NCBI GenBank assembly: GCA_964478715.1
Contig: CAYZIY010000006.1
Location: 23,186-87,185 of the forward strand
DNA from: an uncultured Planctomycetales bacterium
GTDB taxonomy: Bacteria > Omnitrophota > Gorgyraeia > Zapsychrales > JBDRMG01
Reading direction: 5' to 3'
DNA: 64,000 nt
Made by a program: the position numbers and the translations under genes
Notes under the pieces: generated by a model
What the model was told of the DNA's origin: nothing
Database searches by the model: none
What the model saw: only the letters and a program-made list of their open reading frames with translations
Part shown: positions 6,971 through 43,425 of the stretch, in pieces
Layout of the letters: each line of letters begins with the position of its first letter
Numbering within the stretch: the stretch's first letter is position 1

Positions 6971-7020
6971 TTTTCATCTTTTAAGTATAGCGCTCATTAT
7001 ATGACGGAATGTGCGCTAAA

Positions 7021-8007
7021 TCAAGGCTTTCTTATAGAGAAGATGACAGCGGATGGTTTTTTTTGGACCCAAATACCAAAAGGCAGATGCACGCAAGAAC
7101 CGACCGGTCGCTGGATGATGAGCTGATCTAGCTCAAGAAGATGTGAAAAAGAGATTCGACGGGTGTGCCCGACAATTTTTTCTATGGCTAAGCGAAGAAT
7201 CATTCTTTGCAGAGAGACAGGTTGTTGTCTCCATTTATCCAGAGATAATACAGTTTGGCCCGCTGGTTCTTTCTTGACAATTCTGTGGTAGATTTTTTCT
7301 CCCGATTGTCGAAGAAAAGAGTAGTCTTCAAGGGCTGTCCGGCCCAAATAACTCAGAATAGTTCGCATTTGACTTTGATATTCTTTTTCAAGATGAGGTA
7401 AAAGTTTATGGCGTATTCTGTTTCGTAAAAGATTTGTGTTTCGATTGCTGGGATCATGGCAATATTTGATTTTATTCTTCCTTAGATAATCTTTGATTTG
7501 GGATCGACTGATGTTTATCAGCGGTCGAATGAGGCGGATGTGGTCGCGCTCTGCGCAAGGACTTATTCCCTTAAGGCCTTGCAGACCTGTTCCCCTGATA
7601 ATACGCATGAGAACCGTTTCCGCCAAATCATCCTGATGGTGCCCTAAGGCGACGGCGGCAGCTTTATGTTTTATGGCTGCCTGAATCAGGAAACCCAAAC
7701 GCCTCTCCCTGGCCTGTTCTTCTAGGTTTCCCTTTGCTTTCTTGAGATCCAACACTTTTTTGCAAATAATAACACATTGATTTTCTCGCGCGGCTTTTTC
7801 TGTAAACTTCTGAAATCTATCTGAATCTTTAAGTAATCCATGATTGAAGTGGGCTACAAGGAGTTGTATGCCCAGTCGGTGTCGTAAACGGATCAGGATA
7901 TTCAGCAGGGCTATGGAATCAGGTCCTCCGGAGACAGCGACAATGATCCGCTCTCCTTTCTGGATCATGACATGATCGTTAATCGTTTTCTCGATTTCTT
8001 TAAGCAT
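7021..8007 (-). CDS. tilS: tRNA(Ile)-lysidine synthetase
   Basis: PP-loop SGGPDS motif near the N-terminus. Conserved tilS-ftsH order. Confidence 0.8.
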   Translation of the reverse strand: MLKEIEKTINDHVMIQKGERIIVAVSGGPDSIALLNILIRLRHRLGIQLLVAHFNHGLLKDSDRFQKFTEKAARENQCVIICKKVLDLKKAKGNLEEQARERRLGFLIQAAIKHKAAAVALGHHQDDLAETVLMRIIRGTGLQGLKGISPCAERDHIRLIRPLINISRSQIKDYLRKNKIKYCHDPSNRNTNLLRNRIRHKLLPHLEKEYQSQMRTILSYLGRTALEDYSFLRQSGEKIYHRIVKKEPAGQTVLSLDKWRQQPVSLQRMILRLAIEKIVGHTRRISFSHLLELDQLIIQRPVGSCVHLPFGIWVQKKPSAVIFSIRKP

Positions 8008-8640: not shown

Positions 8641-9044
8641 TTTCTTTTTTCTAGGCTATATTGTCCAGGTCCGATGATGGCTAAACTTATAAATATAATA
8701 AATAGTTTTAAAGGATGACTGAAGACCGAGAATTCCTGCCCATTATTGATATGCATCATGGTGGCGACGAACATAGTTAGCGCTAATAATACATTGGCCC
8801 AGCGAAAAAGAAATCCTGCTGTCAGCAGAAATCCTCCAAGAAATTCGGCAACAGAGGCCAGGAATCCAAAAAGTGTGGGGGCAAAATAAATTCCGACACT
8901 GGCCGTTGCCATTCCTAAAGATTTCCAGACCTCGGGTCCTCCCGTTATTTTGGGCCATCCGTGAAGCATCATCATAATGCCTAATCCACAACGCAGGATG
9001 AGCAATCCAGTGTCTTTATTTTCTTTCAAAAAAATATTACGCAT
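8637..9044 (-). CDS. DoxX family membrane protein
   Basis: Four predicted TM helices with LLILRCGLGIMMMLHGWPKI. The ORF track start at 9119 would overlap the upstream gene by 83 nt, so the internal Met at about 9044 was chosen. Confidence 0.55.
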   Translation of the reverse strand: MRNIFLKENKDTGLLILRCGLGIMMMLHGWPKITGGPEVWKSLGMATASVGIYFAPTLFGFLASVAEFLGGFLLTAGFLFRWANVLLALTMFVATMMHINNGQEFSVFSHPLKLFIIFISLAIIGPGQYSLEKRK

Positions 9045-10752
9045 CGGGACCTCCTTCTTTTTTCTGATTAACATGGTTCTTAAGCCTGCGAAGAAATTCT
9101 GGATGAGCCTTGTGGCCAAGCCGTAAAGACATTTTACAATTTTTCCATGCTTTTTGGTAGTTTTGTTTTTTGTAATAGGCTAAAGCCAAATTGTAGTAGG
9201 CTGTCGGAAAATCTGGATCTATTTTTGCAGCTTCCTTGAAATACGCAATTGCTTTATCCAGATCTTGTAGAAGATAGTAAGATTTTCCAATACTGTTGGG
9301 GATAAACGGATCATCAGGATCAAGGGCTTTGGCCGTCTTAAGCGTTTTTAAAGCCAGGTGAGGCTTACCTGCGTTGTTATAAGCAATTCCCAGGTTCAAA
9401 TGGATAGGCGCGTTTTGCGGAAATCTGCCGAGGCCTTGATGAAGAATCTGGACAGCGTCTTGAGGCCTCCCTTTTTCAATGTAGAGATATCCGAGATTGA
9501 CAAAAGGAAGCGCGATAGTCGTATTTTTTGCAAGAAGAGATTCCCATAATGTCTCCTCATCCTTATACCGGTTTGTTAAGTGAAATGATTTCACGGATAA
9601 AAAAGTGATCATCATTAGGCTCAGGAAAAAGCTTCCGATAGATCGATGGAAATTTCTCAAAAATAAATATCGTTTTCTTAAGCTTTCCCAGAAATAAAAA
9701 AAGAATGTTAAGAAAAAAAAGATCAAATACGGCATAGCTGGATAAGTAAAATGATCCGCGACAAAAGAAAACTTCATCCCATAAAAATTAAAAAATCCTA
9801 AAACCGGGAAGAGTGCGGCTGTCATCATAAGAAAAGATAACAAGGGCTCCCTTTTGTTGTTTTGAAATAATCTAAAGAGAACAAAGAGGATTGCCGCTAA
9901 GGCCAGCGGAAAAGCATAAGACCAGAGGTTTGTTAAATCCAAATTCCAGTGGGGATAAAAAAACAGGAATTCACCAAACGGAAAAAGAAAACGACTTGAA
10001 TAAAAAAACAGAATTTGACAAGACAGTAAGAGCCGTTGGGCAATACTAAAATCCCACTCAGGGCCGTAAGCTCCCACTCGAAATCTTTCCAGATAGACGG
10101 TATGCAAAGCCGCCACAAGACCCATAATGAGAAATGGTCCAATCCTTTTGGCATCTCGTCTAGTTGGTCTCTCTCCTTTTCGCAGGGTCACAAAGATCGG
10201 AAAAAGAATGAAATGCACAACCGCTGTCTTGCACAAGAGCGCCAGGGTGAAACAGAAAAACGAAAGAGCGTACCAGCCTGTTTTATTTTCATCATCATAT
10301 CGCATAAAACTTAAAGCGGCGCAAAAAAAGAAAAAAAGGCTAAAAATATTTTTTTGCTCCATTACCCAGCAGACCGTCTCCACCTGAAGCGGATGGCAGG
10401 AGAAAATAAGGGCGCCCAGAAATGCGAATTTCGGGAACAGCCGACGAAAAAATTCGAAACACAAAAGCGTATTGGCGATATGGAAAACAAGACTGAGGAG
10501 ATGATATCCGAGAGGATTCAGCCCCCAGAATTTTTCCTGAATCCAGAAAAAAGAAAACACCAGGGGGTAATACTGGTGTATTTTATGAGAAAACCAAATA
10601 TTTTTCAGACCCTCCAGATTTTGCAGATAAGGATTGTTGAGGATGTAGGAATCGTCATCCCAGATAAAACCATTACCGAGAGAGGATGCATAAATCAAAA
10701 GGGGCAAAAGGATCAGTATGAAAATTTTAGACTCTCGATTGAATGATAACAT
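9037..10752 (-). CDS. TMTC-like polytopic membrane protein (GT-C/DUF1736-type N-domain) with C-terminal TPR repeats
   Basis: N-terminal loop motif GNGFIWDDDSYILNNPY followed by more than 8 TM helices. The C-terminal 150 aa are TPR repeats (AYYNLALAYYKKQNYQKA). Confidence 0.6.
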   Translation of the reverse strand: MLSFNRESKIFILILLPLLIYASSLGNGFIWDDDSYILNNPYLQNLEGLKNIWFSHKIHQYYPLVFSFFWIQEKFWGLNPLGYHLLSLVFHIANTLLCFEFFRRLFPKFAFLGALIFSCHPLQVETVCWVMEQKNIFSLFFFFCAALSFMRYDDENKTGWYALSFFCFTLALLCKTAVVHFILFPIFVTLRKGERPTRRDAKRIGPFLIMGLVAALHTVYLERFRVGAYGPEWDFSIAQRLLLSCQILFFYSSRFLFPFGEFLFFYPHWNLDLTNLWSYAFPLALAAILFVLFRLFQNNKREPLLSFLMMTAALFPVLGFFNFYGMKFSFVADHFTYPAMPYLIFFFLTFFFYFWESLRKRYLFLRNFHRSIGSFFLSLMMITFLSVKSFHLTNRYKDEETLWESLLAKNTTIALPFVNLGYLYIEKGRPQDAVQILHQGLGRFPQNAPIHLNLGIAYNNAGKPHLALKTLKTAKALDPDDPFIPNSIGKSYYLLQDLDKAIAYFKEAAKIDPDFPTAYYNLALAYYKKQNYQKAWKNCKMSLRLGHKAHPEFLRRLKNHVNQKKEGGPDA

Positions 10753-10771: not shown

Positions 10772-12451
10772 TCAGGGCGTTAGCAGCCCTTGTGCCAGCA
10801 GGATCCCCAGGACTAAAATGATCACCGCGCTCAAGATCATATAGACTTGATCATCTTTTCTGGGGTTAAGATCATGGACTTTTGTCTTTGCCCACTGGTC
10901 GCCCCACCTTTTTCCGAGGCGATCGAAATACATAATAAAATATTCAAAAATGGCAAGAAACGGAATGATTAAGGTCAGATTTCTTGAGAGACCCTGCAGG
11001 AAATCGATATCGTCATTATTGTCTTGAACAACTTTGAGATTGATTAGGGCTTTGCCAGGACTTCTTCCGGTAAAGGAATCTCGTAAAAGAAAATAGAGAG
11101 CAAAAATTATAATGAAGATATTCCATCGGAAAAGAACCACCAGAAAGAAATGGATGACAAAAGTCAGCATCAGATCAATCAGATAGGCGCAGACTCGCTT
11201 ATAAGCGCTCGGTTTGTGAAAAATTTTCTTTGCAGTCGGATTGATTTCTTCCTGAATGGCCGGCGTAATTTCAGGATGAGAAATATGATTTTCTGGGTTT
11301 GGAGTGAAAGCGGATTTTGATGACTTTATTATCTTGCTTTTTCTTTTTTCCGAAAAGAGCAATACGAAAGCCGTACCAAAGACGATAAATAAAAGAACGA
11401 TAATAATAAGCAGGAATACGGATCCAATGGTTTGTTCCCGGAAATTATTGCGGTTGATGTTTTGTTTGAAAGCAGGGTTCTTCTGAGCCTTGGTGGCTTT
11501 AATTTGATTCAGAAGATCTCTTTTGAAGGGCTCGTGAACTTGATACCCCAAATGTTCTGCGGTTATTAAGTCCTGATGGCTCTCGGAGAATCTTTTTTTG
11601 GCGAATAAGGCAATACTGCGACTGTAATAGGCGGGGGCATAATCAGGATCGCGGTTCAGCGACATTCGATAAAATTTGATCGCTTCATCATAATCTTCTG
11701 CCGTCAAATAAAGATTTCCGATATTGGTATAAATATCGGCCCGTTGCGGATTGATCTCAGTGACGCTCGCGTAATCATTGAGCGCCATCTCCAACTCTCC
11801 CAGAGTATAGTACACATTGCCTCTATTGAGATAGGCTTGGAGCAAAGCGGGATTAATTTCAAGAGCCCGGGTTAGATAATCGACAGCTTTTTCAAAATCC
11901 TTATTTTCAAAGGCGTGAGTTCCTTTATTGTAAAAAATCAGCGCCATATCGGGGTGGTAGTGACCTGAAATATCATAAGCTTTGAGATAATATTCCAGCG
12001 CCTGCTCCTGTTTTCCTAGAGCGGCATAGGCGGATCCTAAGCCCCTATAGGCTTGCTCGTCATCGGGATGATCCTCCAGAACAGTTTTGTAGTATTTGAT
12101 GGCAATATAGGGATCATCAAGGGAAACGCTTAGTTTGGGAGGCGGTGTCTGACGGAAATGTGTATCGGATTCCCGATTATCCTCTTGGTCAATACGATCT
12201 TTGAAATCCGATATTTTTTCGATTTCATCTCGGTAGTACTTAAGTTCAATCTCCTGAGATGTCTTGATCTTAATGAAATCCCTGTTCTGCTCTATGATCT
12301 GACCGGAAATTGTATTGCCGTTCTTTAGGGAAATAATTTCAGCAAAGATGCCGAAAGAAGGAAGCAAAAGCAAGAGTGAAAATAAAAGAAACTTCTTTAT
12401 TAAATCGCAGAATTTTTTCATGCTGGTAGCGGCGGGCGAGGCCTCGTCCAA
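10772..12451 (-). CDS. Signal peptide plus TPR-repeat protein with a C-terminal RDD-family membrane domain
   Basis: Multiple TPRs (AYRGLGSAYAALGKQEQALEYY...), a central TM helix, and a C-terminal RDD-like region (YLIDLMLTFVIHFF...RDSFTGRSPGKALINLKVV). Confidence 0.6.
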   Translation of the reverse strand: MDEASPAATSMKKFCDLIKKFLLFSLLLLLPSFGIFAEIISLKNGNTISGQIIEQNRDFIKIKTSQEIELKYYRDEIEKISDFKDRIDQEDNRESDTHFRQTPPPKLSVSLDDPYIAIKYYKTVLEDHPDDEQAYRGLGSAYAALGKQEQALEYYLKAYDISGHYHPDMALIFYNKGTHAFENKDFEKAVDYLTRALEINPALLQAYLNRGNVYYTLGELEMALNDYASVTEINPQRADIYTNIGNLYLTAEDYDEAIKFYRMSLNRDPDYAPAYYSRSIALFAKKRFSESHQDLITAEHLGYQVHEPFKRDLLNQIKATKAQKNPAFKQNINRNNFREQTIGSVFLLIIIVLLFIVFGTAFVLLFSEKRKSKIIKSSKSAFTPNPENHISHPEITPAIQEEINPTAKKIFHKPSAYKRVCAYLIDLMLTFVIHFFLVVLFRWNIFIIIFALYFLLRDSFTGRSPGKALINLKVVQDNNDDIDFLQGLSRNLTLIIPFLAIFEYFIMYFDRLGKRWGDQWAKTKVHDLNPRKDDQVYMILSAVIILVLGILLAQGLLTP

Positions 12452-21280: not shown

Positions 21281-21808
21281 TCATCGTTGTGGATTGCGTC
21301 TGCGCTTGGCAATGAGGGAGAAAAGCAAGCCCAAAAATCCTCCGCCGGCGTTAAAAAGAATATCGCGTAGATCATAATATCTTTGCGGCAAAAGATGTTG
21401 GATTCCTTCATCCAGCCATCCGCAGCCAGCTGTCAAAATAAAAGCAAGGAGATAATGTTTCGCGCGGGGCTGTTCATCATTGAGAGCCCGCAAAATCAAG
21501 AAAGACAGCACTCCATATTGAAGAAAATGAATTTTTTCTTCGGGAATTTTGATGAAGCAGACAATCAAGCCACCAGCTATCAGGATGAGAGTAAGTAAAA
21601 GATAGTTCAAGAGATCGTGGTTTATTCTCTCAATCAGGACAAAGATCAATATGGCCGTTACGGTTAAGAAAATTCCGGCATTGATGGCCGCCGAAAAGGG
21701 AATCGCTTCGCGCAGAAAACCGCTGATCGATCGCGCCAATGGAAGCGTCGCGTAAATAAACAATAACCAAAGGCCGGCAATCATCCATTGTTTCTGTTTT
21801 TTATTCAT
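21281..21808 (-). CDS. VanZ-like family membrane protein
   Basis: Four TM helices and a C-terminal WLDEGIQ...R...D...FNAGGGFLGL pattern reminiscent of VanZ. Confidence 0.5.
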   Translation of the reverse strand: MNKKQKQWMIAGLWLLFIYATLPLARSISGFLREAIPFSAAINAGIFLTVTAILIFVLIERINHDLLNYLLLTLILIAGGLIVCFIKIPEEKIHFLQYGVLSFLILRALNDEQPRAKHYLLAFILTAGCGWLDEGIQHLLPQRYYDLRDILFNAGGGFLGLLFSLIAKRRRNPQR

Positions 21809-22643
21809 GGCCCCCTTTACTTATCCAGATGGATTTTCCGTCCGTTTTAAAAACGATATCTCCATCTTGATCGGTGCGAAAAAAGCGATTTTTAATCTTA
21901 GCGAGATCTTCTTCGCCGGGAATGCCCCACTTGTTTTTACCGGTGCTCATCACCAGCACAGCTTCTTTAAAAGCATTCGCGAATTCCCCGCTAATCGGTC
22001 CGCCATGATGCGGAATTTGGACAACTTTTGCTTTCTTGATCTGAGGATATTCCCTTAAGAGTTCTTGCTGTTGTTCGGGCTGAATATCCGCCGTGAAAAG
22101 GACAGAAACATCTTTGTATTCTAATAAAAGGACCATGGAGCTGGCATTGACGCCCTGGTTGAAGTGTTGAGGATGTAAAACGGTCAAATCGAGATCTCCC
22201 GGAAGTTGGCTGACCGATGTCCCTTTCAATCCAATTTTTACAGGAACATTCTGAGAGCGGATCAGACCCAAAAGCTCTGCATAGCCCTCCTCTGCTCGGG
22301 TGTCACCATTAATCAAAAAATGTTTGACCCTTTTGCTTTCTGCCAGCGGTAAAAATCCTTCGAAATGATTTTTATGCGGATGCGTAATGATTCCCATATC
22401 AATCGGGATAACCTCTTCATTTCTCAAATACGAAAGGAGATGGGGAGCCGATTCTTTTGACCCGGCATCAATCAGGATATTCGCGTGCTCGGGGTATTTG
22501 ATTAAAATGGCATCAGCGTAATCAACAGAAATGAAATGAATAGAAAGATACTCATTCTTATTCGATTGATTTATCGCAAAAATGATCAGAATGATCAAGA
22601 TGCAAATAAGATTAATAACAGGAAACCTATTTTTTATGGACAT
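21801..22643 (-). CDS. ComEC/Rec2-related metallo-beta-lactamase-fold protein (membrane-anchored)
   Basis: ILIDAGS and ITHPHKNH (HxHxDH-like) motifs after an N-terminal TM helix. Confidence 0.6.
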   Translation of the reverse strand: MSIKNRFPVINLICILIILIIFAINQSNKNEYLSIHFISVDYADAILIKYPEHANILIDAGSKESAPHLLSYLRNEEVIPIDMGIITHPHKNHFEGFLPLAESKRVKHFLINGDTRAEEGYAELLGLIRSQNVPVKIGLKGTSVSQLPGDLDLTVLHPQHFNQGVNASSMVLLLEYKDVSVLFTADIQPEQQQELLREYPQIKKAKVVQIPHHGGPISGEFANAFKEAVLVMSTGKNKWGIPGEEDLAKIKNRFFRTDQDGDIVFKTDGKSIWISKGGHE

Positions 22644-23421
22644 AGGGCAATAACATATTGCTTAAATGGATATATTGCTCCAAAGAGATTGTTTGCGGTC
22701 TCTGCCGGGGATCGATGAATATCTTACCCAAGCAATGTTCAAGGACATCTTTTCTGTGATCGTTTTTAAGGGAATTAATAATGGTTTTTCGTCTTTGCTG
22801 AAAAGATTTGCGAACTAAAGATAAGAAAAATTCTTGATTTCTGACGGCCGGAAAAATATTTTTTCTGGGATCAAAACGGCAAAAGCATGACTCTACTTTC
22901 GGCTTGGGTTGAAAAGAGCTGTTCTTGATTTTGAATAAGATCGTGCCCAAGGTGTGGAATTGACAAAAAATACTGAAAGCGCTATAGTTTTTATCTCCCG
23001 CCTTCGCGATCATGCGTTGGGCCAATTCGGTTTGAAGCATCAGGAAGATCTGATTGAAGCGTTCTTTATGCGTAAAAATTTTGGCGATAATCGCAGAGGC
23101 AATACAATACGGAAGATTGGCGATGATTTTAATTTTTTTTGGCAGTTTGTTGAGATCAAAGCGCATAAAATCTTCCTGAAATAAGGTGAAATTTTCCTGC
23201 GGAAATTTTTCTGTCAATAATTTACAGAGACAACGGTCTGTCTCAACCGCATAAAGATGACCTGCGTTCTTTAAAATGGATCCTGTCAGTGCTCCTCGAC
23301 CCGGTCCAATTTCCAAGACCTTTTCGTTTTGACTCAAATCACTTATGTCGATGATTTTCCGGATGATGTTTTGATTGATAAGAAAATTCTGACCCCACCT
23401 TGGTTTGGATTGAGAGCGCAA
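22627..23421 (-). CDS. rsmA: 16S rRNA (adenine1518/1519-N6)-dimethyltransferase
   Basis: GQNFLINQNII and EIGPGRGALT motifs. Conserved surA-pdxA-ksgA cluster. Confidence 0.9.
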   Translation of the reverse strand: MRSQSKPRWGQNFLINQNIIRKIIDISDLSQNEKVLEIGPGRGALTGSILKNAGHLYAVETDRCLCKLLTEKFPQENFTLFQEDFMRFDLNKLPKKIKIIANLPYCIASAIIAKIFTHKERFNQIFLMLQTELAQRMIAKAGDKNYSAFSIFCQFHTLGTILFKIKNSSFQPKPKVESCFCRFDPRKNIFPAVRNQEFFLSLVRKSFQQRRKTIINSLKNDHRKDVLEHCLGKIFIDPRQRPQTISLEQYIHLSNMLLPYVHKK

Positions 23422-23431
23422 AAGAAGTTCC

Positions 23432-24394
23432 TTATGCTTTTGAGAAATTCATGAGCCGATGGGCAAGCACAATAGATTGTTCCATCGATGTTTCATCCGC
23501 TTGATTTTTTCCTGCAATGTCATAGGCCGTTCCATGGGCCGGAGACGTTCTGATGAACGGAAGACCGATCGTTAGATTGACCAATTCTTTAAAATAGAGC
23601 GCTTTAAGAGGGGCGAGCCCCTGATCATGGTACATAGCAATGATCCCATCATATCTTTTAATATGTTGCGGACAAAAGAGTGTATCGGCCGGCAGGGGGC
23701 CTTGCGCGGAAATTCCCTTTCGGAGAGCTTCTCTTATCGCCGGTAAGAGAATGGTTCTTTCTTCATTACCCATGTGGCCTTGCTCACCGGCATGAGGATT
23801 AATGCCGCATAAAGCAATTTTTGGCTTTTTGATTTTAAACAATTTTCTTAAGGCCTGATGAGTTAATGTCAGGGTTTTTAGTATGTTTTTCTTAGAAAGT
23901 TTTTCAGGAATTTGCTTTAAGGGAATGTGCCGGGTGGCCAGTACCAATTTGATGGATTTGGCGACAAACATCATTTCATAATTTTTAATCATAAATGATT
24001 CGGCCAAAAATTCGGTGTGACCCCGAAAATTGTATCCCAGGGAACAGATCATCTGTTTAGAGAGCGGTGCCGTGACCAGAGAATCTATTTTCTTGTTTTT
24101 CAACATTTCGCAGGCTTGTTCCAGATAAGCCATAGCCGCTTTGGCTGCGTGTCGATTTGGACGACCGATGGAAAAAGATTGAGAACTCAGCGGTGAAGGA
24201 TCAATGATTTCAATATTCGGCCTCCTTCTTAATCCGTAGCTTTTTAGCAGGTTTTCGTTTGCGATAACGATAAAATGCGCACCATGACTGAGCGATCTCT
24301 TGTTTAGCGTTTTGACGATAATCTCCGGGGCGATACTGCTCGGATCTCCACCGGTGATTCCGATTGTTTTCTTTTTAAGCATACGTATGGTCAT
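23432..24394 (-). CDS. pdxA: 4-hydroxythreonine-4-phosphate dehydrogenase
   Basis: GITGGDPSSIAPEI N-terminus and HDQGL motif. Confidence 0.9.
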   Translation of the reverse strand: MTIRMLKKKTIGITGGDPSSIAPEIIVKTLNKRSLSHGAHFIVIANENLLKSYGLRRRPNIEIIDPSPLSSQSFSIGRPNRHAAKAAMAYLEQACEMLKNKKIDSLVTAPLSKQMICSLGYNFRGHTEFLAESFMIKNYEMMFVAKSIKLVLATRHIPLKQIPEKLSKKNILKTLTLTHQALRKLFKIKKPKIALCGINPHAGEQGHMGNEERTILLPAIREALRKGISAQGPLPADTLFCPQHIKRYDGIIAMYHDQGLAPLKALYFKELVNLTIGLPFIRTSPAHGTAYDIAGKNQADETSMEQSIVLAHRLMNFSKA

Positions 24395-24413: not shown

Positions 24414-25403
24414 CTATTCTTTGATTTCAATGTAAGCTTCTTTCTTAAGTTCTTCCAGCCATTGAGTCAAGCGCTTCAGGTACTTTTCTTCATAGATTCG
24501 GGATTGAATCTCATCCTGAACCTCTTCCAGAGTAGCTTGCTGGGCGGGCACCTTCTTAATTATCTTGAAAATGAAGACTCCTGTTTCTGTTTCTATGGGT
24601 TCGGACACTTGCTGAGGTTTTAGGTTAAAAATTATCTTTTCGACTTCCGGCAAGAGCGTGCCTTTTTGGACTGTTTTAATGGAAGGAGAATCCGAATATT
24701 CTTCGATTAATTCAAGAAAATCCGTACCTTGGTCAATTTGAGCCTTAATATTATTGGCCAGCTCAAGGATTTTTGTGCGATCATCATCTTTAAATTGGAG
24801 ATAAATCGAATCAACTTTGGCCTTTGGCGCAATGGCAAACTCATCCTGATGTTCTTGATAGTAAGCGGTGATCTCCTGAGGTTTGATGAATATCATTTTT
24901 CGGACAAAATTATCCAACATATATTTGATCTTGATATCGTCTTTGATTTTATTTTCCAGATCTGTCACCGTTAGGTCTTTCTCGACGACATTCTCCAGAA
25001 AATGCTGCTCACTGGGATATTGCTCTTTGATCTTTTCGATCTTCTGCTCTACATTGCGATCGGGTATCACGAGTTCAAGCCTATCGGCTTCATCCAGGAT
25101 CAACTTCTCTTCGATGAGTCTCTTGAGGCCGTCATTTTGATAATAGGCAATTTGTTGCTGAATCTCTCGCTCGGGGAGACCTTCGGCTTTCAGTCTTAAA
25201 TAAATCGAATTCATGAATGTCCGAAGGTCCTTCATCGTGATCACGTGATTGTTGACGAGGGCAATAATAGCATCTTCCAGCCCCCGGGCTGGATGAGCGC
25301 CTGTCAGAAGGCAGCAGAGGAGAAAAAATAATGCGAAAATATTTTTCATAGTTTTTACACCTTTTTTATTATATGAGTGATTGATTCTTTTAAAAGCCGG
25401 CAA
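24414..25403 (-). CDS. surA: Periplasmic chaperone/peptidyl-prolyl isomerase, SurA-like (parvulin type)
   Basis: Signal peptide, SurA-N-like domain, and position upstream of pdxA-ksgA as in gamma-proteobacterial synteny. Confidence 0.65.
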   Translation of the reverse strand: MPAFKRINHSYNKKGVKTMKNIFALFFLLCCLLTGAHPARGLEDAIIALVNNHVITMKDLRTFMNSIYLRLKAEGLPEREIQQQIAYYQNDGLKRLIEEKLILDEADRLELVIPDRNVEQKIEKIKEQYPSEQHFLENVVEKDLTVTDLENKIKDDIKIKYMLDNFVRKMIFIKPQEITAYYQEHQDEFAIAPKAKVDSIYLQFKDDDRTKILELANNIKAQIDQGTDFLELIEEYSDSPSIKTVQKGTLLPEVEKIIFNLKPQQVSEPIETETGVFIFKIIKKVPAQQATLEEVQDEIQSRIYEEKYLKRLTQWLEELKKEAYIEIKE

Positions 25404-27229
25404 TAAAGATCAAAACCGACGGAAGCTATGTATCCGTGCTGTTGCTCACCCAGTAGATTTCCGGCCCCGCGAATCTGCAAATCTTCAAATGCGATATCAA
25501 ATCCGCTTCCTAAACCGCTATGCTTTTGAAGCGCGTCAAGACGCGTTTTAGAGACCCGTGAAAGATGGGCCCGCGGGGGGGTGATGAAATAGGCATAAGC
25601 CTTATTCAAATAGCGCCCCACTCTTCCGCGCAATTGATGCAGCTCGGCCAGCCCGAATCGATCCGCCCGATTGACAATCAGCGTGTTGGCATTGGGAATA
25701 TCAATGCCTGATTCGATAATCGTTGTGCAAACGAGAATATCAATCTTGCCTCTGAGAAAATCAAGCATGATTTCCTCAAGAAGACGGTTGGGCATCTGCC
25801 CATGGGCAACAGCGACTCTTGTCCCGGGGCAAAGTCTTATTATTATCTTAGCGATTCTCTCGATATCGTCAACTCGATTATGCAAAAAAAAGACCTGCCC
25901 TTTTCTCCTGAACTCTCTTTGCATGGATTCCTTAAGCAGGTCTTCATCAAATTCAACAATATGGGTTGATACAGGAATGCGGTCCTGCGGGGGGGTGGAG
26001 ATCACAGACATATCTTTTGCTCCAGAGAGGGACATGTAGAGAGTGCGCGGAATGGGTGTGGCGGTTAAGGTTAGGACATCAACCAGTAATTTCAAATGCT
26101 TAATGCGTTCTTTGGCGCGCACGCCGAATCGCTGTTCTTCATCAATGACTAAAAGCCCCAGATTTTTGAATTTAATATCACCCGACAACAGGCGGTGAGT
26201 GCCGATGATCATATCGACTTGACCTTGGGAGAGGTCCTCCAGGATTTCTTTCTGCTCCTGTCGGGTGCGAAAACGGCTGAGCATTTCAACGCGGACTGGA
26301 AAATCCTGACAACGCCTTCTAAAATTATAAAAATGTTGTTCAGCCAAGATTGTGGTGGGAACGAGAATTGATACCTGCCGGTTGTCCATCACCGCTTTAA
26401 AAGCGGCTCTCATAGCGACTTCCGTTTTGCCGTATCCGACATCACCGCAAATAAGCCGATCCATAGGAAAAGGCGCCTCCATGTCTTTTTTGACATCTTC
26501 TGTGGATTTGATTTGGTCAGGCGTTTCCTTATAGGGAAATTTCTTTTCAAATTGCGTTTGCCAGGGCGTGTCTTTAGAGAATGCATAACCGGAAAGACTG
26601 GATCGAATCGCCTGCAGGCGCAAAAGTTCGGCCGCAAAACGCTGTATTCTTTTTTGGATTCGGGCTTTGATCCGCTTCCATTCCCCGCTTCCCAGTTTAT
26701 ACAATCTCGGAGGGTGTTTGGAAAAACCGACATATTTTTGAACCAAATGGATATCGTGACGGGGAACGAAAAGCCGGTCTCCTCCCTTGTATTCAATGAT
26801 CAGATGTTCTTTCTTCTTTTCCTGGAGAGAGAATTCCTTAAAACCGATGAATTTCCCGATACCATGATTATTGTGAACGACATAATCTCCCTTTTTGATA
26901 TCGACAAATCCGCTTAAGGGCGTTTCGCTGTTAAAAATGCGTTTTTTGGATTTTTTATTAGCGAGGATGATGACGATCTCATGAGACCAGATGGAATCGC
27001 CTGTTTTAGGGTTGATACTGCGGATGAAGCGGATGATATCATCATCCAGATCTATCCGGATGGGACAGTCAAAATTGGTGGGAAAGATATCAATAATCCC
27101 GCCGCGTTGGGAGAACTCCCCTTCTTTGAAAACTTTCCGTTCTTGCTCATATCCCAAGCTGATGAGTTCGGATTTTATCTGATTTAAATCGATCTGTTGG
27201 TCGACCAGAAGCTTGAGAGACTGAAACAT
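25355..27229 (-). CDS. mfd: Transcription-repair coupling factor Mfd, short form (624 aa; CarD-like RID plus SF2 translocase plus TRG motif; lacks most of the UvrB-homology module and D7)
   Basis: Contains GEFSQRGGIIDIFP, CarD-like GDYVVHNNHGIGKF, helicase motifs GDVGYGKTEVA/DEEQRFG/QLRGRVGR, and a TRG-like tail ending 12 aa after VGFDLYCRLL. The start sits 1 nt from the secDF stop. Confidence 0.8.
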   Translation of the reverse strand: MFQSLKLLVDQQIDLNQIKSELISLGYEQERKVFKEGEFSQRGGIIDIFPTNFDCPIRIDLDDDIIRFIRSINPKTGDSIWSHEIVIILANKKSKKRIFNSETPLSGFVDIKKGDYVVHNNHGIGKFIGFKEFSLQEKKKEHLIIEYKGGDRLFVPRHDIHLVQKYVGFSKHPPRLYKLGSGEWKRIKARIQKRIQRFAAELLRLQAIRSSLSGYAFSKDTPWQTQFEKKFPYKETPDQIKSTEDVKKDMEAPFPMDRLICGDVGYGKTEVAMRAAFKAVMDNRQVSILVPTTILAEQHFYNFRRRCQDFPVRVEMLSRFRTRQEQKEILEDLSQGQVDMIIGTHRLLSGDIKFKNLGLLVIDEEQRFGVRAKERIKHLKLLVDVLTLTATPIPRTLYMSLSGAKDMSVISTPPQDRIPVSTHIVEFDEDLLKESMQREFRRKGQVFFLHNRVDDIERIAKIIIRLCPGTRVAVAHGQMPNRLLEEIMLDFLRGKIDILVCTTIIESGIDIPNANTLIVNRADRFGLAELHQLRGRVGRYLNKAYAYFITPPRAHLSRVSKTRLDALQKHSGLGSGFDIAFEDLQIRGAGNLLGEQQHGYIASVGFDLYCRLLKESITHIIKKV

Positions 27230-27230
27230 C

Positions 27231-29438
27231 TTACTTAATAAATTTCTGCCAGGCTAAGACAAGCGGGGTCGCGATAAAGATCGTCGAATACGTACCGCTG
27301 ATGAATCCAATCATAAGACACAGAGCAAAAGTGTTAAGAACTTCGCCGCCCAGAAGATAAAGAGTGACGACCACTAAAAGAGTTGTGATGGTTGTGATGA
27401 TCGTTCGTCCTAGAGATTGATTGACACTGGCATTAAGGACTTCGCGGAAGCTGAGTTTTTTTAGCTTCAGCATATTTTCCCGTACCCGGTCATAAATAAC
27501 GATGGTGTCATTGATCGAATAACCGGCTATCGTCAAGAGAGCCGTAATAACCAAAAGATCGACTTGTCTGCCCAGAGCCACCACTAATCCCAATGTGAGG
27601 ATAACATCGTGTAAAAGGGCGATCACGCCGGCGGCCGCAAAGTCAAAGTGCTTGAAGCGGAATCCGACATAAATCAAAATTCCAAAAAGCGCAAAGACGA
27701 TGGCCAAGATCGCTTTTTCGCGCAGTAGCTTTCCAACGACAGGCCCCACTTTTTCAATACGCAGGATTTCAAAGGAGTTTTCGGGCGCCATCTTTTGAAA
27801 AACATCTTGCACTCTTTGGTATGTATCCTCTGGTGTGCGGATAATGATATTCTCCGGATTTTGATCAAAGCGCTGAATAACAGCGTCTCTCACCCCGGCT
27901 TGCTCAAGAGCGCTTCGCAGTTCTGCGGTTTCGACAGGCTGCTCAAAACGATATTCCTGAAGCTGGCCACCGGCGAAGTCTATTCCGTAGGCCTCGTCTT
28001 TCTTGGAGAAGAAAATATACATCCCGCCGATAATTAAAATCAGTGAAAGGGCATAACAAAAATATCTCTTGGCGACAAAATCGATTTTTGTGTTGCCAAA
28101 AAGTTGAAACATAGGTAGTTTTTTAAGAATTTTAGCATTGAGGAGTAATTCAAAAATGGTTCGGGTCACAACGAAAGCGGTAAAGAGACTGGCCAGCAGA
28201 CCCATGGTCAGGGTGACGGCAAATCCTTTGATGGGACCAGATCCAAATTGAAACAAAATCAGGGCGGCAATCAAGGTTGTGATATTGGAATCAAAGATAG
28301 CCCGGAAGGCTTTATGATAGCCGTTATTGATAGCCGCTCGCAAGGGTCGTCCGTTTCGGATTTCTTCGCGGATTCGTTCATTAATAAGGACATTGGCATC
28401 GACAGCCATGCCGAGAGTCAAAATAATACCGGCGATTCCGGGAAGTGTCAGGGTAACTTGAGAAGCGGGCATCATGACATTCAAAAAGCCCATCAGTCCC
28501 AGAATAATTAAAAGATTCAAAACCAGAGCGATATCTGCTACAAAACCGCTGGTCAAATAATAAAGGAGCATAAAAGCCAGGACAATGCACCCGCCTATGA
28601 GGGTAGCCTTAATGCCTGCATTGATGGAATCTTTCCCCAGAAGAGGACCGATGGTGCGTTCTTCCTCAATGCGCATGGGGGCAGGCAGGGCGCCGGAGCG
28701 AAGTGATAAAGCCAGCAAGCTTGCATCTTCGAAGGTAAACAAACCGGTGATTTCGGCCTGACCGGAGAGAATCGGTTCGCGGATATTTGGCGCCGAAATA
28801 ACCTTTCCATCGATAACAATAGCCAATTGCTTGCCCACATTTTCTTGTGTCAATTTACTGAAGGTTTTGGCTCCTTGCGAATCAAAAGACAAAGAAATTT
28901 TTGGTTCCCCAAAGCCGGATTGATTAAAATCAACACGGGCATCTTTTACATGCTCGCCTTCAAGAGTCATAGTATCTTTGATAAGAATCGGCTCTCTTTC
29001 CTTTGTTTCTCGGTCCTCGATATATTTCAAGACATATCCTTCGGGGACATCGCCCTTAAGAGCTTGTTTTAGTTTTACAGGATCTCCTACCAGCCGGAAC
29101 TCCAGTTGGGCGACTTTGCCGATAATGGCCAGGGCATTATCGCGATCAGTGACCCCCGGCAGTTGAATAATGATATCATCCTCCCCCTGTCTTTGAATCA
29201 CTGGTTCGGAAACACCCAGAGCGTCAATCCTGTTTCTGAGAATTTCCATTGCTCTTAAAACGACATCACTTCGAGCGTCATCATCCAATTTTTCTGTTTC
29301 GACTTTAACGATCAAATGCATGCCGCCTTTAAGATCCAATCCGAGATTGATCCTTTTTTCAAGTGGAAAAGTGAAGTAGATCGAAGCTAAAAGCACCCCC
29401 AGGATCAATAGGATTTTCCATTTCAGATTTTTTCCCAT
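27231..29438 (-). CDS. secDF: Protein translocase subunit SecDF (fused SecD-SecF)
   Basis: 735 aa with two 6-TM bundles and periplasmic domains. yajC lies immediately upstream. Confidence 0.9.
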   Translation of the reverse strand: MGKNLKWKILLILGVLLASIYFTFPLEKRINLGLDLKGGMHLIVKVETEKLDDDARSDVVLRAMEILRNRIDALGVSEPVIQRQGEDDIIIQLPGVTDRDNALAIIGKVAQLEFRLVGDPVKLKQALKGDVPEGYVLKYIEDRETKEREPILIKDTMTLEGEHVKDARVDFNQSGFGEPKISLSFDSQGAKTFSKLTQENVGKQLAIVIDGKVISAPNIREPILSGQAEITGLFTFEDASLLALSLRSGALPAPMRIEEERTIGPLLGKDSINAGIKATLIGGCIVLAFMLLYYLTSGFVADIALVLNLLIILGLMGFLNVMMPASQVTLTLPGIAGIILTLGMAVDANVLINERIREEIRNGRPLRAAINNGYHKAFRAIFDSNITTLIAALILFQFGSGPIKGFAVTLTMGLLASLFTAFVVTRTIFELLLNAKILKKLPMFQLFGNTKIDFVAKRYFCYALSLILIIGGMYIFFSKKDEAYGIDFAGGQLQEYRFEQPVETAELRSALEQAGVRDAVIQRFDQNPENIIIRTPEDTYQRVQDVFQKMAPENSFEILRIEKVGPVVGKLLREKAILAIVFALFGILIYVGFRFKHFDFAAAGVIALLHDVILTLGLVVALGRQVDLLVITALLTIAGYSINDTIVIYDRVRENMLKLKKLSFREVLNASVNQSLGRTIITTITTLLVVVTLYLLGGEVLNTFALCLMIGFISGTYSTIFIATPLVLAWQKFIK

Positions 29439-41628: not shown

Positions 41629-43425
41629 CTAATTTTTCTTTATGCACTTTTGGTAATCGAAAGGAATGTTGGGCTGGGATTGTGGAAATATTTGCAGGAG
41701 CATCTTGACGTGTCTTTCAGCTTCTTGGCATCGGGCCTCTCGGGAGTAAAGGCCGATTAAGCGATAATGAGCATCGACACTTTGAGGGGCAAAATGAAGC
41801 ACCTCATGAAATAATCGGATAGCCTCCTCGGTGTTCTCCATTTTCTCAAAGGCAAAAGCCAGGTTGTAGAGCACATCCACATCAAAGGGATTGATCCGCA
41901 AAGCTTTATTGTAAGTCAAGGCGGCATTTTTAAGGTCACCCGTGTTAAGATAAAGATTGCCGAGATTGTAAAGGACATTGGTGTCATTTGGTTGAAGACG
42001 TAGAGCATTGAGATAGCTTTCTCTGGCCTGATCCATCTCTCCCCGACGAGAATGAATCGGACCGGATTTGGAGAATGTAAGGAACTCAACGATCTTGGGA
42101 TTTAATTTCACGGGCTTACAGATGGCGAAAACGACGGCAACCCCCAGCAGGCTTGCCGAAAAAGCTTCCCATTTTTTCTTTATCAACATATCAAAAAGAA
42201 AAACAATAGCCGCGCTTTCAAAAATAATCAAAAACGGCAAGATGCTGATCCGGTGTCTGAGAATCAAAAAATAGATGAGAGTAAAAATCAATTGACTTAA
42301 AATCAGAAAGACGATCAGCCAGGCTTTGGGATTCTTTTTAAGGCCAATGATCATCCCCAGAAGCGCTAACGGTAAAATTATGCGAAAACCGTTGTGATCA
42401 AGTTTTTTCTTCCACTGTCTTTGAAAGATCAAATCCAGGTCATAGGTAGCCTGATGATCAATGAAAAAAAGCTTGAGCTTGTTAACAATCAAATCAAAAT
42501 ACCGTTGGGGATTTTCGCGGATAAAATCCACGGCTAGATTTTGCCAATAGGCGGACACCTCTGAGGGCTTGAGCTCTTTGCGGAGCCTGGATTCGGCGAT
42601 GATGCGCGGATCATCCACATGTCCCTGGTGAAAGGGCCTTAAAAACATTGGATTGTTAAATGTGCCTGTGGATTGAGGATTATTGCCGATATAAAAATTA
42701 ATGCCGCTATGGGCGCTTAAAAAAACAAAATCATTCCCCAATTTATAGTTGCGATAGGAAACGGATGCCAGCACAAGTAAAAGTCCCAGAGCGCATAATG
42801 CTAAGCGTTTTGCGATAGCTCGCGCAGATCGGCGTTTGCGAAAAAGAATAAAACAAAATGAAAACATAACGAAAATAAGAAATTTACCGTCGGCGAGAGC
42901 ACCTGATCCCAGAAAAAGACCCAGCAGGAACCAGCGCAAAAAACGGGAATGTTCATCCAAATAGAGGAAGCCGCAAATGACGACACAGCTTAAAAAGATG
43001 ATCAAGGGAACCGGCATCAGGAGCCAGTCATAATAAATCAGCGGAAAGCTCAGCGCGGTTAAAATACCGGAAAGGACAGCCACTTTTTGGCCAAAGAGAC
43101 GTTTGGCAATGACATAGATGAATATTACATTGACCGAACCGAGGACGAGGTGAAATCCGCGAATCAGCTCAATATTATCGCCGAGAAGGCGCATCAAAAA
43201 GGCCAGGAAATACGGATAAAGCGGCATGCCATGGAAGGCGCGTTTAGCCAGACCGGTTTGGGCAATGATCTGGCGGGCCCAGTCCTGATAAAAAAGGACA
43301 TCACTGCTGGGATCATCGATAAAGAAATAGTGAGCCTGCAGGAAAGCGCTGTAAGTAAAGCGCACAGCCAGGGAAACCATAAACAGGATGGCCAGAAAGA
43401 AAATTTCTTTACGATTTGCGTTCAT
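41629..43425 (-). CDS. GT-C fold (ArnT/PMT-like, GT39/GT83-type) membrane glycosyltransferase with C-terminal TPR repeats
   Basis: First-loop motif FIDDPSSDVLFYQDWA and about 11 TM helices. The C-terminal 170 aa are TPRs (VLYNLGNLYLNTGDLKNA...). Confidence 0.6.
   Translation of the reverse strand: MNANRKEIFFLAILFMVSLAVRFTYSAFLQAHYFFIDDPSSDVLFYQDWARQIIAQTGLAKRAFHGMPLYPYFLAFLMRLLGDNIELIRGFHLVLGSVNVIFIYVIAKRLFGQKVAVLSGILTALSFPLIYYDWLLMPVPLIIFLSCVVICGFLYLDEHSRFLRWFLLGLFLGSGALADGKFLIFVMFSFCFILFRKRRSARAIAKRLALCALGLLLVLASVSYRNYKLGNDFVFLSAHSGINFYIGNNPQSTGTFNNPMFLRPFHQGHVDDPRIIAESRLRKELKPSEVSAYWQNLAVDFIRENPQRYFDLIVNKLKLFFIDHQATYDLDLIFQRQWKKKLDHNGFRIILPLALLGMIIGLKKNPKAWLIVFLILSQLIFTLIYFLILRHRISILPFLIIFESAAIVFLFDMLIKKKWEAFSASLLGVAVVFAICKPVKLNPKIVEFLTFSKSGPIHSRRGEMDQARESYLNALRLQPNDTNVLYNLGNLYLNTGDLKNAALTYNKALRINPFDVDVLYNLAFAFEKMENTEEAIRLFHEVLHFAPQSVDAHYRLIGLYSREARCQEAERHVKMLLQIFPQSQPNIPFDYQKCIKKN

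Follow-up and report, generated by a model that had tools for sequence, protein, structure and literature searches.

A short form of the transcription-repair coupling factor Mfd in Omnitrophota that keeps the UvrA-interaction domain D2

The 624-amino-acid protein encoded in the window (the whole 64-kb stretch of DNA analyzed here) is a true Mfd, the Omnitrophota ortholog of the transcription-repair coupling factor, and its sequence relatives indicate a real, phylum-wide form that has lost four of eight domains. It is most likely a coupling factor that still recruits UvrA, without the D2:D7 autoinhibitory clamp. Canonical Mfd comprises about 1150 amino acids folded into eight domains and is studied both as a model regulated molecular motor and as a drug target, being regarded as an 'evolvability factor'; current models of its action center on the D2:D7 clamp and on large domain rearrangements. 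The account given below starts from what can be read directly, namely domain content and boundaries, the integrity of motifs, conservation across the family, synteny, and a UvrA whose partner domain is intact. The genes concerned, and the parts of the short Mfd in order from its N-terminus, are as follows.

25355..27229 (-): short mfd, 624 aa plus stop (ORF list, TIGR00580, E. coli Mfd structure matches, Logan assembly)
27231..29438 (-): fused secDF, directly upstream of mfd (NF009583 SecDF, 780 bits, cutoff 721)
24414..25349 (-): SurA-like peptidyl-prolyl isomerase, directly downstream of mfd
61387..>64000 (-): uvrA, presumed partner, N-terminus beyond the window edge (NF001503 UvrA, 1225.6 bits, cutoff 1147)
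26954..27217 (-): D2, aa 5-92, UvrA-interaction domain, sole retained part of the UvrB-homology module (PF17757 UvrB_inter)
26897..26953 (-): basic, probably flexible tether between D2 and RID, aa 93-111 (MAFFT alignment)
26729..26896 (-): D4, RNA-polymerase-interacting domain (Tudor-like RID), aa 112-167 (PF02559 CarD_TRCF_RID)
26600..26683 (-): relay helix from RID to translocase lobe 1, aa ~183-210 (AF2 helix 183-210; gap-free against E. coli ~549-576)
26000..26554 (-): D5, translocase lobe 1, aa ~226-410 (PF00270 DEAD, aa 256-397)
25559..25999 (-): D6, translocase lobe 2, aa ~411-557 (PF00271 Helicase_C, aa 436-540)
25361..25558 (-): TRG (translocation in RecG) and hook helices, aa ~558-623 (alignment to E. 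coli 924-990)

The short mfd gene is tightly enclosed by its neighbors. Translation starts at an ATG at 27229 and ends with the stop codon at 25357-25355. The TAA stop codon of secDF occupies 27233-27231, a spacer of 1 nt that leaves no space for D1a upstream, while the likely ATG of surA lies at 25349, a spacer of 5 nt that leaves no space for D7 downstream. A first-pass annotation of this DNA had described a 624-aa ORF of about half the canonical length between secDF and surA, and its coordinates, start and quoted strings all hold: GEFSQRGGIIDIFP, DDDIIRFI and GDYVVHNNHGIGKF are found in the protein, as is VGFDLYCRLL, after which 11 residues remain. That annotation had also called for a check of the assembly for frameshifts, and an independent Logan assembly (SRR7048227) encodes the identical 624-aa protein.

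Domain boundaries were set from the E. coli Mfd structure matches and a MAFFT alignment. Pfam matches along the protein are UvrB_inter (aa 5-92), CarD_TRCF_RID (112-167), DEAD (256-397), and Helicase_C (436-540). Residues 10-73 align with E. coli 133-196 and residues 91-617 with E. coli 457-983 free of gaps, such that the protein corresponds to E. coli ~125-213 (D2) fused straight to ~457-990 (D3-D4 linker to hook helices). The UvrB_inter match (E=5.4e-19) spans profile positions 1-89 of 91. Most of the UvrB-homology module had been described as absent; D1a and D1b are indeed gone, but what had been taken for a short UvrB-like segment is a complete D2. D3 is absent as well, a loss that the first-pass annotation did not state explicitly. 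In the MAFFT alignment the tether that follows D2 is the homolog of the D3-D4 linker of E. coli Mfd (~457-477); it is also the least conserved region across the short-Mfd family. The RID match (E=1e-16) covers profile positions 2-57 of 57, and two crystallized RID fragments in the PDB, 3mlq_E and 6yhz_A, are among the matches of the protein; the equivalent of E. coli L499 is F133, inside a family-variable stretch. The RecG-like SF2 translocase motifs I-VI, the TRG motif, the relay helix and the hook helices are all intact. Walker A (GDVGYGKT) and Walker B (DEEQ) of D5 are invariant in the family, motif VI of D6 (QLRGRVGR) is conserved throughout the alignments, and little or no variation occurs in GDVGYGKT, DEEQRFGV, TATPIPRT, QLRGRVGR, and IRGAGNLLG. 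The alignment of the TRG and hook region to E. coli 924-990 includes IRGAGNLLGEQQHG, and the C-terminus falls at the start of the E. coli D6-D7 linker (~990). Pfam yields no match to PF03461 (TRCF/D7) in the protein, which ends at E. coli ~990. Relative to E. coli Mfd, then, D1a, D1b, D3, and D7 are cleanly excised, as judged from Pfam and alignment. Retention of the RID, both RecA-like lobes and TRG, and absence of D1a and all of D7, had been proposed from the first reading, along with annotation against PF17757, PF02559, and PF03461; these proposals agree with the Pfam and alignment results, in which the first two families are found and the third is not.

An AF2 model run with a more diverse alignment (pLDDT 83, pTM 0.70) supersedes an earlier run on a shallow alignment (pLDDT 67, pTM 0.49), in which the RID and TRG regions were unreliable. 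D2 has pLDDT values of 74-91 over the two runs. In the better model the RID is a beta-barrel with confident pLDDT, the C-terminal helices span residues 558-569, 576-587, and 595-623, and pLDDT falls below 50 only at residues 93-109, within the tether.

The same architecture recurs in at least 120 plus at least 120 protein clusters (about 240) of 615-683 aa, all from Omnitrophota where named, and subclade 1 shares a conserved start, MF.S. Open mfd frames of 627-660 aa with secDF-mfd-surA synteny are present in about 30 GTDB species genomes, a layout that leaves no room for the missing parts; secDF lies upstream in about 28 related loci and surA downstream in nearly all. A closed 3.36-Mb contig (ERZ21862645 ctg38531l) has this layout too. 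The tail following DLYCRLL has a median length of 17 aa across the family (range 8-41). Among other Mfds, 148 of the 150 best 50%-identity representatives measure 975-1332 aa, including one from the sister PVC phylum Auribacterota (1065 aa), indicating that the short form is the derived state. A 'SIWQH' motif (W81, H83) was considered as a new intramolecular contact and rejected as a general feature, being confined to subclade 1.

Several other explanations for a protein of this length were weighed. Identification as RecG, or as a branch-migration helicase of the RecG type, has almost no probability. A RecG-like motor is present, though this is common to all Mfds, and a weak match to PF19833 (RecG_dom3_C) falls below its cutoff. 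RecG equivalog models score only 193-388 bits against cutoffs of 555-995 (the best, 388 against 718), whereas TIGR00580 mfd reaches 877.6 bits and passes its equivalog cutoff of 800. Against NF007966, a model of full-length enterobacterial-type Mfd, the score of 655 bits lies below the cutoff of 1329, a shortfall to be expected when half of the domains are missing. In a PDB sequence search E. coli Mfd structures are matched at E=3.5e-175, E. coli Mfd outranks RecG by E-value (1e-175 vs. 1e-74), and Mfd is the top Foldseek match for the model. The RID and D2 are both present in the short Mfd and both lacking in RecG, and a Pfam scan gave no match to the RecG wedge domain. The choice of Mfd over RecG made in the first-pass annotation is thus upheld on realignment. 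An assembly error, frameshift or truncated call of a normal ~1150-aa mfd, or a pseudogene, is rejected and its probability is negligible: nothing was found in its favor, and it is opposed by the same architecture and conserved start in about 240 independent clusters drawn from NCBI, JGI, ENA, and Logan assemblies, by the identical protein in an independent assembly, by conserved synteny with tightly abutting neighbors, and by catalytic motifs that are all intact. A split gene, with D1a/D1b/D3 and/or D7 encoded elsewhere as separate proteins that reassemble with the 624-aa core, is very unlikely. In tblastn searches D7 of four full-length Mfds had no match anywhere along the 64-kb window, nor in any of about 30 Omnitrophota loci, each ~14 kb long, while all four full-length control loci were recovered (E 1e-6 to 1e-16). 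D1a and D1b+D3 from E. coli and three other full-length Mfds likewise gave nothing significant in the window or the roughly 30 related loci; the negative for D1a is weak, since this domain is too divergent for BLAST and only one of four positive controls was significant, a point in favor of a split. No separate ORF for the missing domains, as the first-pass annotation had contemplated, was therefore found nearby within the scope of these searches. The TRCF domain is also absent from precomputed Pfam lists within ±10 kb of the short mfd in two further genomes, neighbors abut the gene at 1 and 5 nt, and split genes normally remain adjacent.

A more serious alternative concerns function. To the first-pass annotation, most of the region bearing the UvrA-binding surface appeared to be missing, and the protein was suggested to be a translocase uncoupled from UvrA. 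On this reading it would displace RNA polymerase and serve only in anti-backtracking, termination or roadblock clearing, D2 having a structural or other role. Its support lies in the absence of D1a, D1b, and D7, in two substitutions within D2, and in the repair-independent roles known for Mfd (PMC13453472). The equivalent of E. coli F185 is D, E or H in the short Mfds and F in 95 of 148 full-length Mfds, and the near-universal Q200 (E. coli numbering) is G. In E. coli Mfd the substitutions R165A/R181A/F185A abolish UvrA interaction and transcription-coupled repair (Manelyte, 2010; PMC3025350), and UvrA-interface residues are taken here as in that study. Both arginines persist in the short form: R42 (E. 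coli R165) is kept in 235 and R58 (E. coli R181) in all of the 239 listed family members, hence each in at least 98%. D2 has drifted to only 30% identity between the two subclades, yet Y27, G37, R42, G43, P50, P56, and R58 are kept across both and the same positions are near-invariant in 148 full-length Mfds, suggesting that D2 is under selection. The best PDB matches of isolated D2 are 4DFC chain A (4dfc_A), the Mfd D2 fragment of a UvrA complex, and 3FPN chain B (3fpn_B), the UvrB interaction domain of a UvrA complex, so that its closest solved relatives are UvrA-bound fragments; UvrB structures match the short Mfd over residues 6-89. Because the N-terminal segment is a complete D2 domain, the UvrA-binding surface appears to be retained, contrary to the first-pass view. 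The uvrA gene reported there is indeed in the window, with a reading frame open up to the window edge, and its product keeps the UvrB/Mfd-binding domain (PF17760 UvrA_inter, E=3.2e-36, profile positions 1-106 of 109). Loss of UvrA coupling would most simply be expected to remove the whole UvrB-homology module, whereas D2 alone outlived the two deletions flanking it; its survival through three separate deletions in the protein argues for UvrA coupling, not against it. The uncoupled translocase is accordingly judged unlikely, and a UvrA-recruiting Mfd is preferred. The UvrB fragment that regulates the UvrA GTPase comprises domains 1a, 2, and 1b (PMC3025350), and D2 without D1a/D1b may bind UvrA more weakly.

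Comparison with characterized proteins helps to frame what such a UvrA-recruiting short Mfd might do. To canonical Mfd (E. coli, PDB 2EYQ; TIGR00580, HAMAP-type Mfd) it is orthologous, 47% identical from RID to hook over 526 aa with no gaps, and the two share the RID, relay helix, translocase motifs, TRG, hook helices, and the D2 fold with its signature residues. Unlike the canonical protein it lacks D1a (~125 aa), D1b+D3 (~240 aa), and D7 (~160 aa), and with them the D2:D7 clamp and the D1-D3 block, and it carries other residues at the positions of E. coli F185 and Q200. Autoinhibitory elements have likewise been removed from E. coli Mfd by engineering, in MfdΔD7 and in N-terminal truncations (Smith, 2007; Murphy, 2009; Manelyte, 2010; PMC3025350). 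MfdΔD7 still carries out strand-specific repair, its ATPase activity is raised and its UvrA binding is constitutive, indicating that D7 is dispensable for repair and needed for repression (PMC3025350). By analogy the short Mfd would be a natural counterpart of MfdΔD7/ΔN, and MfdΔD7 behavior is predicted for it. D2 is spared in both, but in contrast to MfdΔD7 the natural protein has lost D1a, D1b, and D3 as well and has been under long selection across a phylum; the literature on engineered Mfd considered here contains no construct that combines deletion of D7 and D1a/D1b/D3 with retention of D2. Mfd of Thermus thermophilus is a natural Mfd reported to be constitutively derepressed, with a dynamic UvrB-homology module (Brugger et al., 2026; PMC13453472), and that study argues against universal autoinhibition, a precedent for the short form. 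The T. thermophilus protein (PDB 13JQ, 6M6A; 978 aa) has all of D1-D7, whereas the Omnitrophota protein physically lacks domains, and the latter is proposed to carry the weak autoinhibition of T. thermophilus Mfd to an extreme. UvrB domain 2 (PF17757; PDB 3FPN, 1T5L) is of the same fold family as the N-terminal 90 aa and has the same conserved arginine pair; unlike in UvrB, D2 of the short Mfd is not inserted in a helicase domain 1a/1b and stands alone, N-terminal to a dsDNA translocase. RecG shares the homologous SF2 motor and TRG motif, and differs in having a wedge domain and neither RID nor D2.

In canonical Mfd, D2 is masked by D7, which also joins the D1-D3 block in clamping the motor. 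In the mechanism proposed for the short form, three clean deletions have left D2, a ~20-aa tether, RID, relay helix, two lobes, TRG, and hook helices. The Tudor-like RID would dock on a stalled RNA polymerase at its beta-protrusion, and the RecG-like motor would grip the upstream duplex, with ATP driving the polymerase forward or off the DNA. D2, held beside the RID by its short flexible tether, would recruit UvrA(2)B via the conserved arginine surface. With neither the D7 mask nor the D1-D3 block present, this surface would stay exposed at all times and the ATPase/translocase would be derepressed constitutively. The sequence gives good support for the loss of autoinhibition by D7, and D2 might have acquired an alternative mask through contact with the motor, with DNA or with a further protein. 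That the short Mfd displaces RNA polymerase, binds UvrA and is free of autoinhibition is inferred from homology and from the behavior of E. coli mutants. Taken as a whole, a reduced, UvrA-recruiting and non-autoinhibited Mfd is the probable explanation, held with reasonable rather than high confidence.

Literature searches on short or minimal Mfd, or on Mfd in Omnitrophota, returned nothing relevant. It is suggested, tentatively and as somewhat less than an even prospect, that all Omnitrophota carry out transcription-coupled repair with a four-module Mfd (D2-RID-TD1-TD2) whose UvrA surface is never masked and whose motor is never clamped or, alternatively, whose D2 is gated by a different mechanism. 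In E. coli, masking by D7 and the D1-D3 rearrangements through which D2 becomes exposed are thought to prevent premature UvrA engagement. If the suggestion is correct, these would be regulatory add-ons, and a working coupling factor would need no more than a single UvrA-docking domain tethered beside a RID-anchored motor. The parts that evolution treats as indispensable would, judging from the short Mfd, be the RID, the motor, and D2, in support of D2 as the essential UvrA-recruiting element. A compact protein of ~72 kDa would also lend itself to structural and single-molecule work on whether repair can be targeted accurately when the UvrA site is not masked. With respect to annotation, 'transcription-repair coupling factor' calls in Omnitrophota hide a distinct architecture.

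The short mfd gene lies exactly where the first-pass annotation had placed it, and its claimed confinement between secDF, with a stop 1 nt upstream, and surA holds, the spacers being 1 nt and 5 nt. The features of the locus, together with uvrA, are as follows.

25355..27229 (-): short mfd, ATG start, 624 aa, from the ORF list
27231..29438 (-): fused secDF, NF009583 at 780 bits vs. a cutoff of 721
24414..27229 and 22627..24394 (-): gene order, with surA-pdxA-rsmA (ksgA) directly downstream of mfd and secDF and yajC upstream
61387 to beyond 64000 (-): uvrA, in the window

The TAA of secDF occupies 27233-27231 and the mfd ATG follows 1 nt further on; the mfd stop codon is 25357-25355, and the SurA-like gene most likely begins with the ATG at 25349, 5 nt past that stop. 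The genes then run surA, pdxA, rsmA, an order kept at Omnitrophota loci, one of them on a closed 3.36-Mb contig whose gene order matches that of the window across >20 kb. The E. coli surA-pdxA-rsmA operon has this order too. Run SRR7048227, assembled independently in Logan, encodes the same 624-aa protein with the same neighbors.

Judged by its profile matches and alignments, the short protein is an ortholog of Mfd. It passes the NCBIfam Mfd equivalog TIGR00580 (877.6 bits vs. a cutoff of 800), while all RecG equivalogs fall far under cutoff (best 388 vs. 718), so that the original reading of a minimal Mfd rather than a RecG is upheld. In sequence searches of solved structures E. coli Mfd matches with E=3.5e-175, RecG reaching 2e-74 only. 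This match falls in two pieces, with residues 10-73 corresponding to E. coli (Eco) 133-196 and residues 91-617 to Eco 457-983 with zero gaps. Pfam assigns UvrB_inter (PF17757; aa 5-92, profile positions 1-89 of 91, E=5e-19), CarD_TRCF_RID (PF02559; aa 112-167), DEAD (aa 256-397) and Helicase_C (aa 436-540), and a Pfam search of the 624-aa protein gives no match to PF03461, the TRCF or D7 domain. In a MAFFT alignment with E. coli Mfd (from NC_000913) and four other full-length Mfds, the short protein begins at the first D2 strand (Eco ~125), runs through D2 to Eco ~213, and passes directly to the basic D3-D4 linker (Eco ~457), the RNAP-interacting domain (RID), the relay helix, D5, and D6 with its TRG and hook helices. 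It ends 11 residues past DLYCRLL, at the start of the E. coli D6-D7 linker (~990). D1a, D1b, D3 and D7 are therefore absent, the cuts coincide with domain boundaries, and the loss of D7 proposed earlier is borne out. Thus the classical D7 is missing and only a third of the UvrB-homology module (D1a, D2, D1b) is present. All helicase motifs remain intact and do not vary within the short-Mfd family, namely GDVGYGKT, DEEQRFGV, TATPIPRT and QLRGRVGR together with the TRG segment IRGAGNLLG. An AlphaFold2 model built from a diverse family alignment is confident (mean pLDDT 83.3, pTM 0.70): D2 is folded, the RID has five strands, a long relay helix spans 183-210, and two RecA-like lobes and C-terminal hook helices follow, the sole low-confidence segment being the D2-RID tether (residues 93-109). 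Foldseek places Mfd structures at the top (query TM-score 0.62-0.76) and RecG below (0.54).

The first-pass annotation had viewed the N-terminus as a remnant with most of the UvrA-binding surface gone and had suggested that the protein may be uncoupled from UvrA; on this main functional point it was probably wrong. Residues 5-92 are a complete D2. The top two PDB matches of the isolated domain are 4DFC chain A, which is a D2 fragment of Mfd, and 3FPN chain B, which is the interaction domain of UvrB; both are constructs that were co-crystallized with UvrA. The UvrB-homology module is essential to repair in vitro and in vivo, and the triple substitution R165A/R181A/F185A in Mfd abolishes both its interaction with UvrA and strand-specific repair (Manelyte et al., PMC3025350). 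Eco R165 and R181 correspond to R42 and R58. In an alignment of 240 sequences from both subclades of Omnitrophota short Mfds, D2 identity between subclades is 30% vs. 54-67% for the motor, yet R42 is kept in 235/239 and R58 in 239/239 short Mfds; Y27, G37, G43, P50 and P56 are kept as well, the same positions being near-invariant in D2 of 148 full-length Mfds. Retention of these residues despite such drift supports selection acting on the UvrA-binding surface. At the F185 position 95/148 full-length Mfds have F and the short ones D, E or H; at Q200, 145/148 have Q and the short ones G. In the uvrA of the window the UvrA_inter domain is kept in full (PF17760, E=3e-36). That D2 was spared while both flanks were deleted would be hard to explain in the absence of selection on its function.

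The best 120 database relatives are 65-73% identical, all of 615-665 aa with the same Pfam set, and all source-named ones are Omnitrophota/Omnitrophica. An exhaustive HMMER search covered 1.84 billion 50%-identity representatives; among the best 150 considered, only two are short (P0121, 642 aa; P0123, a divergent representative, 640 aa), the remaining 148 having 975-1332 aa. Queried in turn, P0123 finds at least 120 further clusters of 627-683 aa and one fragment, all named ones Omnitrophota. In the GTDB species-genome collection short mfd occurs in ~30 Omnitrophota MAGs, some mislabelled 'uncultured Planctomycetales', as open frames of 627-660 aa with secDF directly upstream and surA directly downstream. 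A subclade 2 member has another upstream gene on the opposite strand, with short mfd-surA-pdxA unchanged. The four non-Omnitrophota loci recovered (Chloroflexota, Acidobacteriota twice, Ignavibacteria) carry mfd ORFs of 1129-1236 aa, and the full-length relatives with the highest scores belong to other phyla, among them Candidatus Tritonobacter (Auribacterota, PVC group; 1065 aa). Short Mfds across Omnitrophota and full-length relatives in other phyla indicate that the short form is a derived, lineage-wide state reached via three deletions. An artefactual short ORF is ruled out by the identical protein in an independent assembly, the family-wide lengths and the shared synteny. A split gene, with the missing domains in a separate ORF, was the alternative raised in the first-pass annotation. 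D7 segments of four full-length Mfds, used as tblastn queries, recovered D7 in 4/4 full-length control loci (E 1e-6 to 1e-16) and gave no match in either the 64-kb window or the ~14 kb covered at each of ~30 Omnitrophota loci; for the more divergent D1a a negative tblastn carries little weight, most of its controls having failed. With spacers of 1 nt and 5 nt there is no space for adjoining fragments, and a distant stand-alone fragment outside the window and these loci is unlikely.

Two Acidobacteriota MAGs (L027 and L029) have a SurA-like gene downstream of full-length mfd, and the mfd-surA adjacency is therefore probably older than the domain losses. The contig CAZHTB010000027.1 (L033), labelled 'uncultured Gammaproteobacteria', carries at ~5935-7366 an Mfd-like ORF in which D2 likewise abuts the RID. 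Identity to Omnitrophota short forms is only 44-49% over the first two thirds of this ORF, and its last ~100 aa are near-identical to the Omnitrophota consensus; secDF is absent upstream and the gene is cut by the contig end, and this is either a chimeric contig or another lineage with the short architecture. A 975-aa Mfd representative from a Verrucomicrobiota MAG (P0207) matches the query in a single stretch without D2, with a low-complexity N-terminal region and D7 apparently present; it may represent another reduced architecture lacking the UvrB-homology module, or its start may have been mis-called.

From homology we infer RNAP docking, translocation, UvrA recruitment and derepression for the short Mfd. 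The RID would dock on the beta-protrusion of RNAP, the motor would bind upstream duplex DNA and translocate toward the polymerase, and D2 would recruit UvrA. In an E. coli cryo-EM series the relay helix ends up wrapped around DNA, a proposed basis of processivity (PMC7864632); with this helix retained, the feature may persist. Regulation is expected to differ. In the free E. coli protein and in its early loading states, the surface of D2 that binds UvrA is covered by D7, and disruption of the D2:D7 contact derepresses ATPase and translocation (PMC3025350, PMC7864632, PMC13453472). E. coli MfdΔD7 shows almost wild-type strand-specific repair and constitutive UvrA binding (PMC3025350). A recent study reports that T. 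thermophilus Mfd, with all its domains in place, is derepressed by nature (PMC13453472), whereas Omnitrophota Mfd wholly lacks D7 and the D1a/D1b/D3 block, from which we predict that its D2 is always exposed and its motor constitutively active. Many family members are already labelled 'transcription-repair coupling factor' in databases; full-text literature searches found no description of a naturally minimal Mfd, nor discussion of Mfd in Omnitrophota. The short Mfd would not overturn the field's models, agrees with the emerging view that not every Mfd is autoinhibited, and offers a clean natural experiment on the question of which domains are essential to Mfd.

Other genes were noted in passing. 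A subclade 2 short mfd (L040, ENA ERZ27253376 k141_830230) is flanked by giant genes, their called products being 2417, 2923 and 8492 aa long and nearly without Pfam matches apart from one faint RHS_repeat match. Large TPR-repeat proteins of 559-846 aa are encoded in the window (-) at 58835..61375, 41629..43425, 10772..12451 and 9037..10752, one of them directly downstream of uvrA, with matches solely to TPR families such as YbgF, BamD, MamA and PrsT. A 280-aa ORF at 21801..22643 (-) matches only the C-terminal part of ComEC/Rec2 (profile positions 424-663 of 663; 65 bits, under the cutoff of 190), which is the metallo-beta-lactamase-like domain, with the competence-channel part missing; it may be another domain-reduced protein of the same genome.
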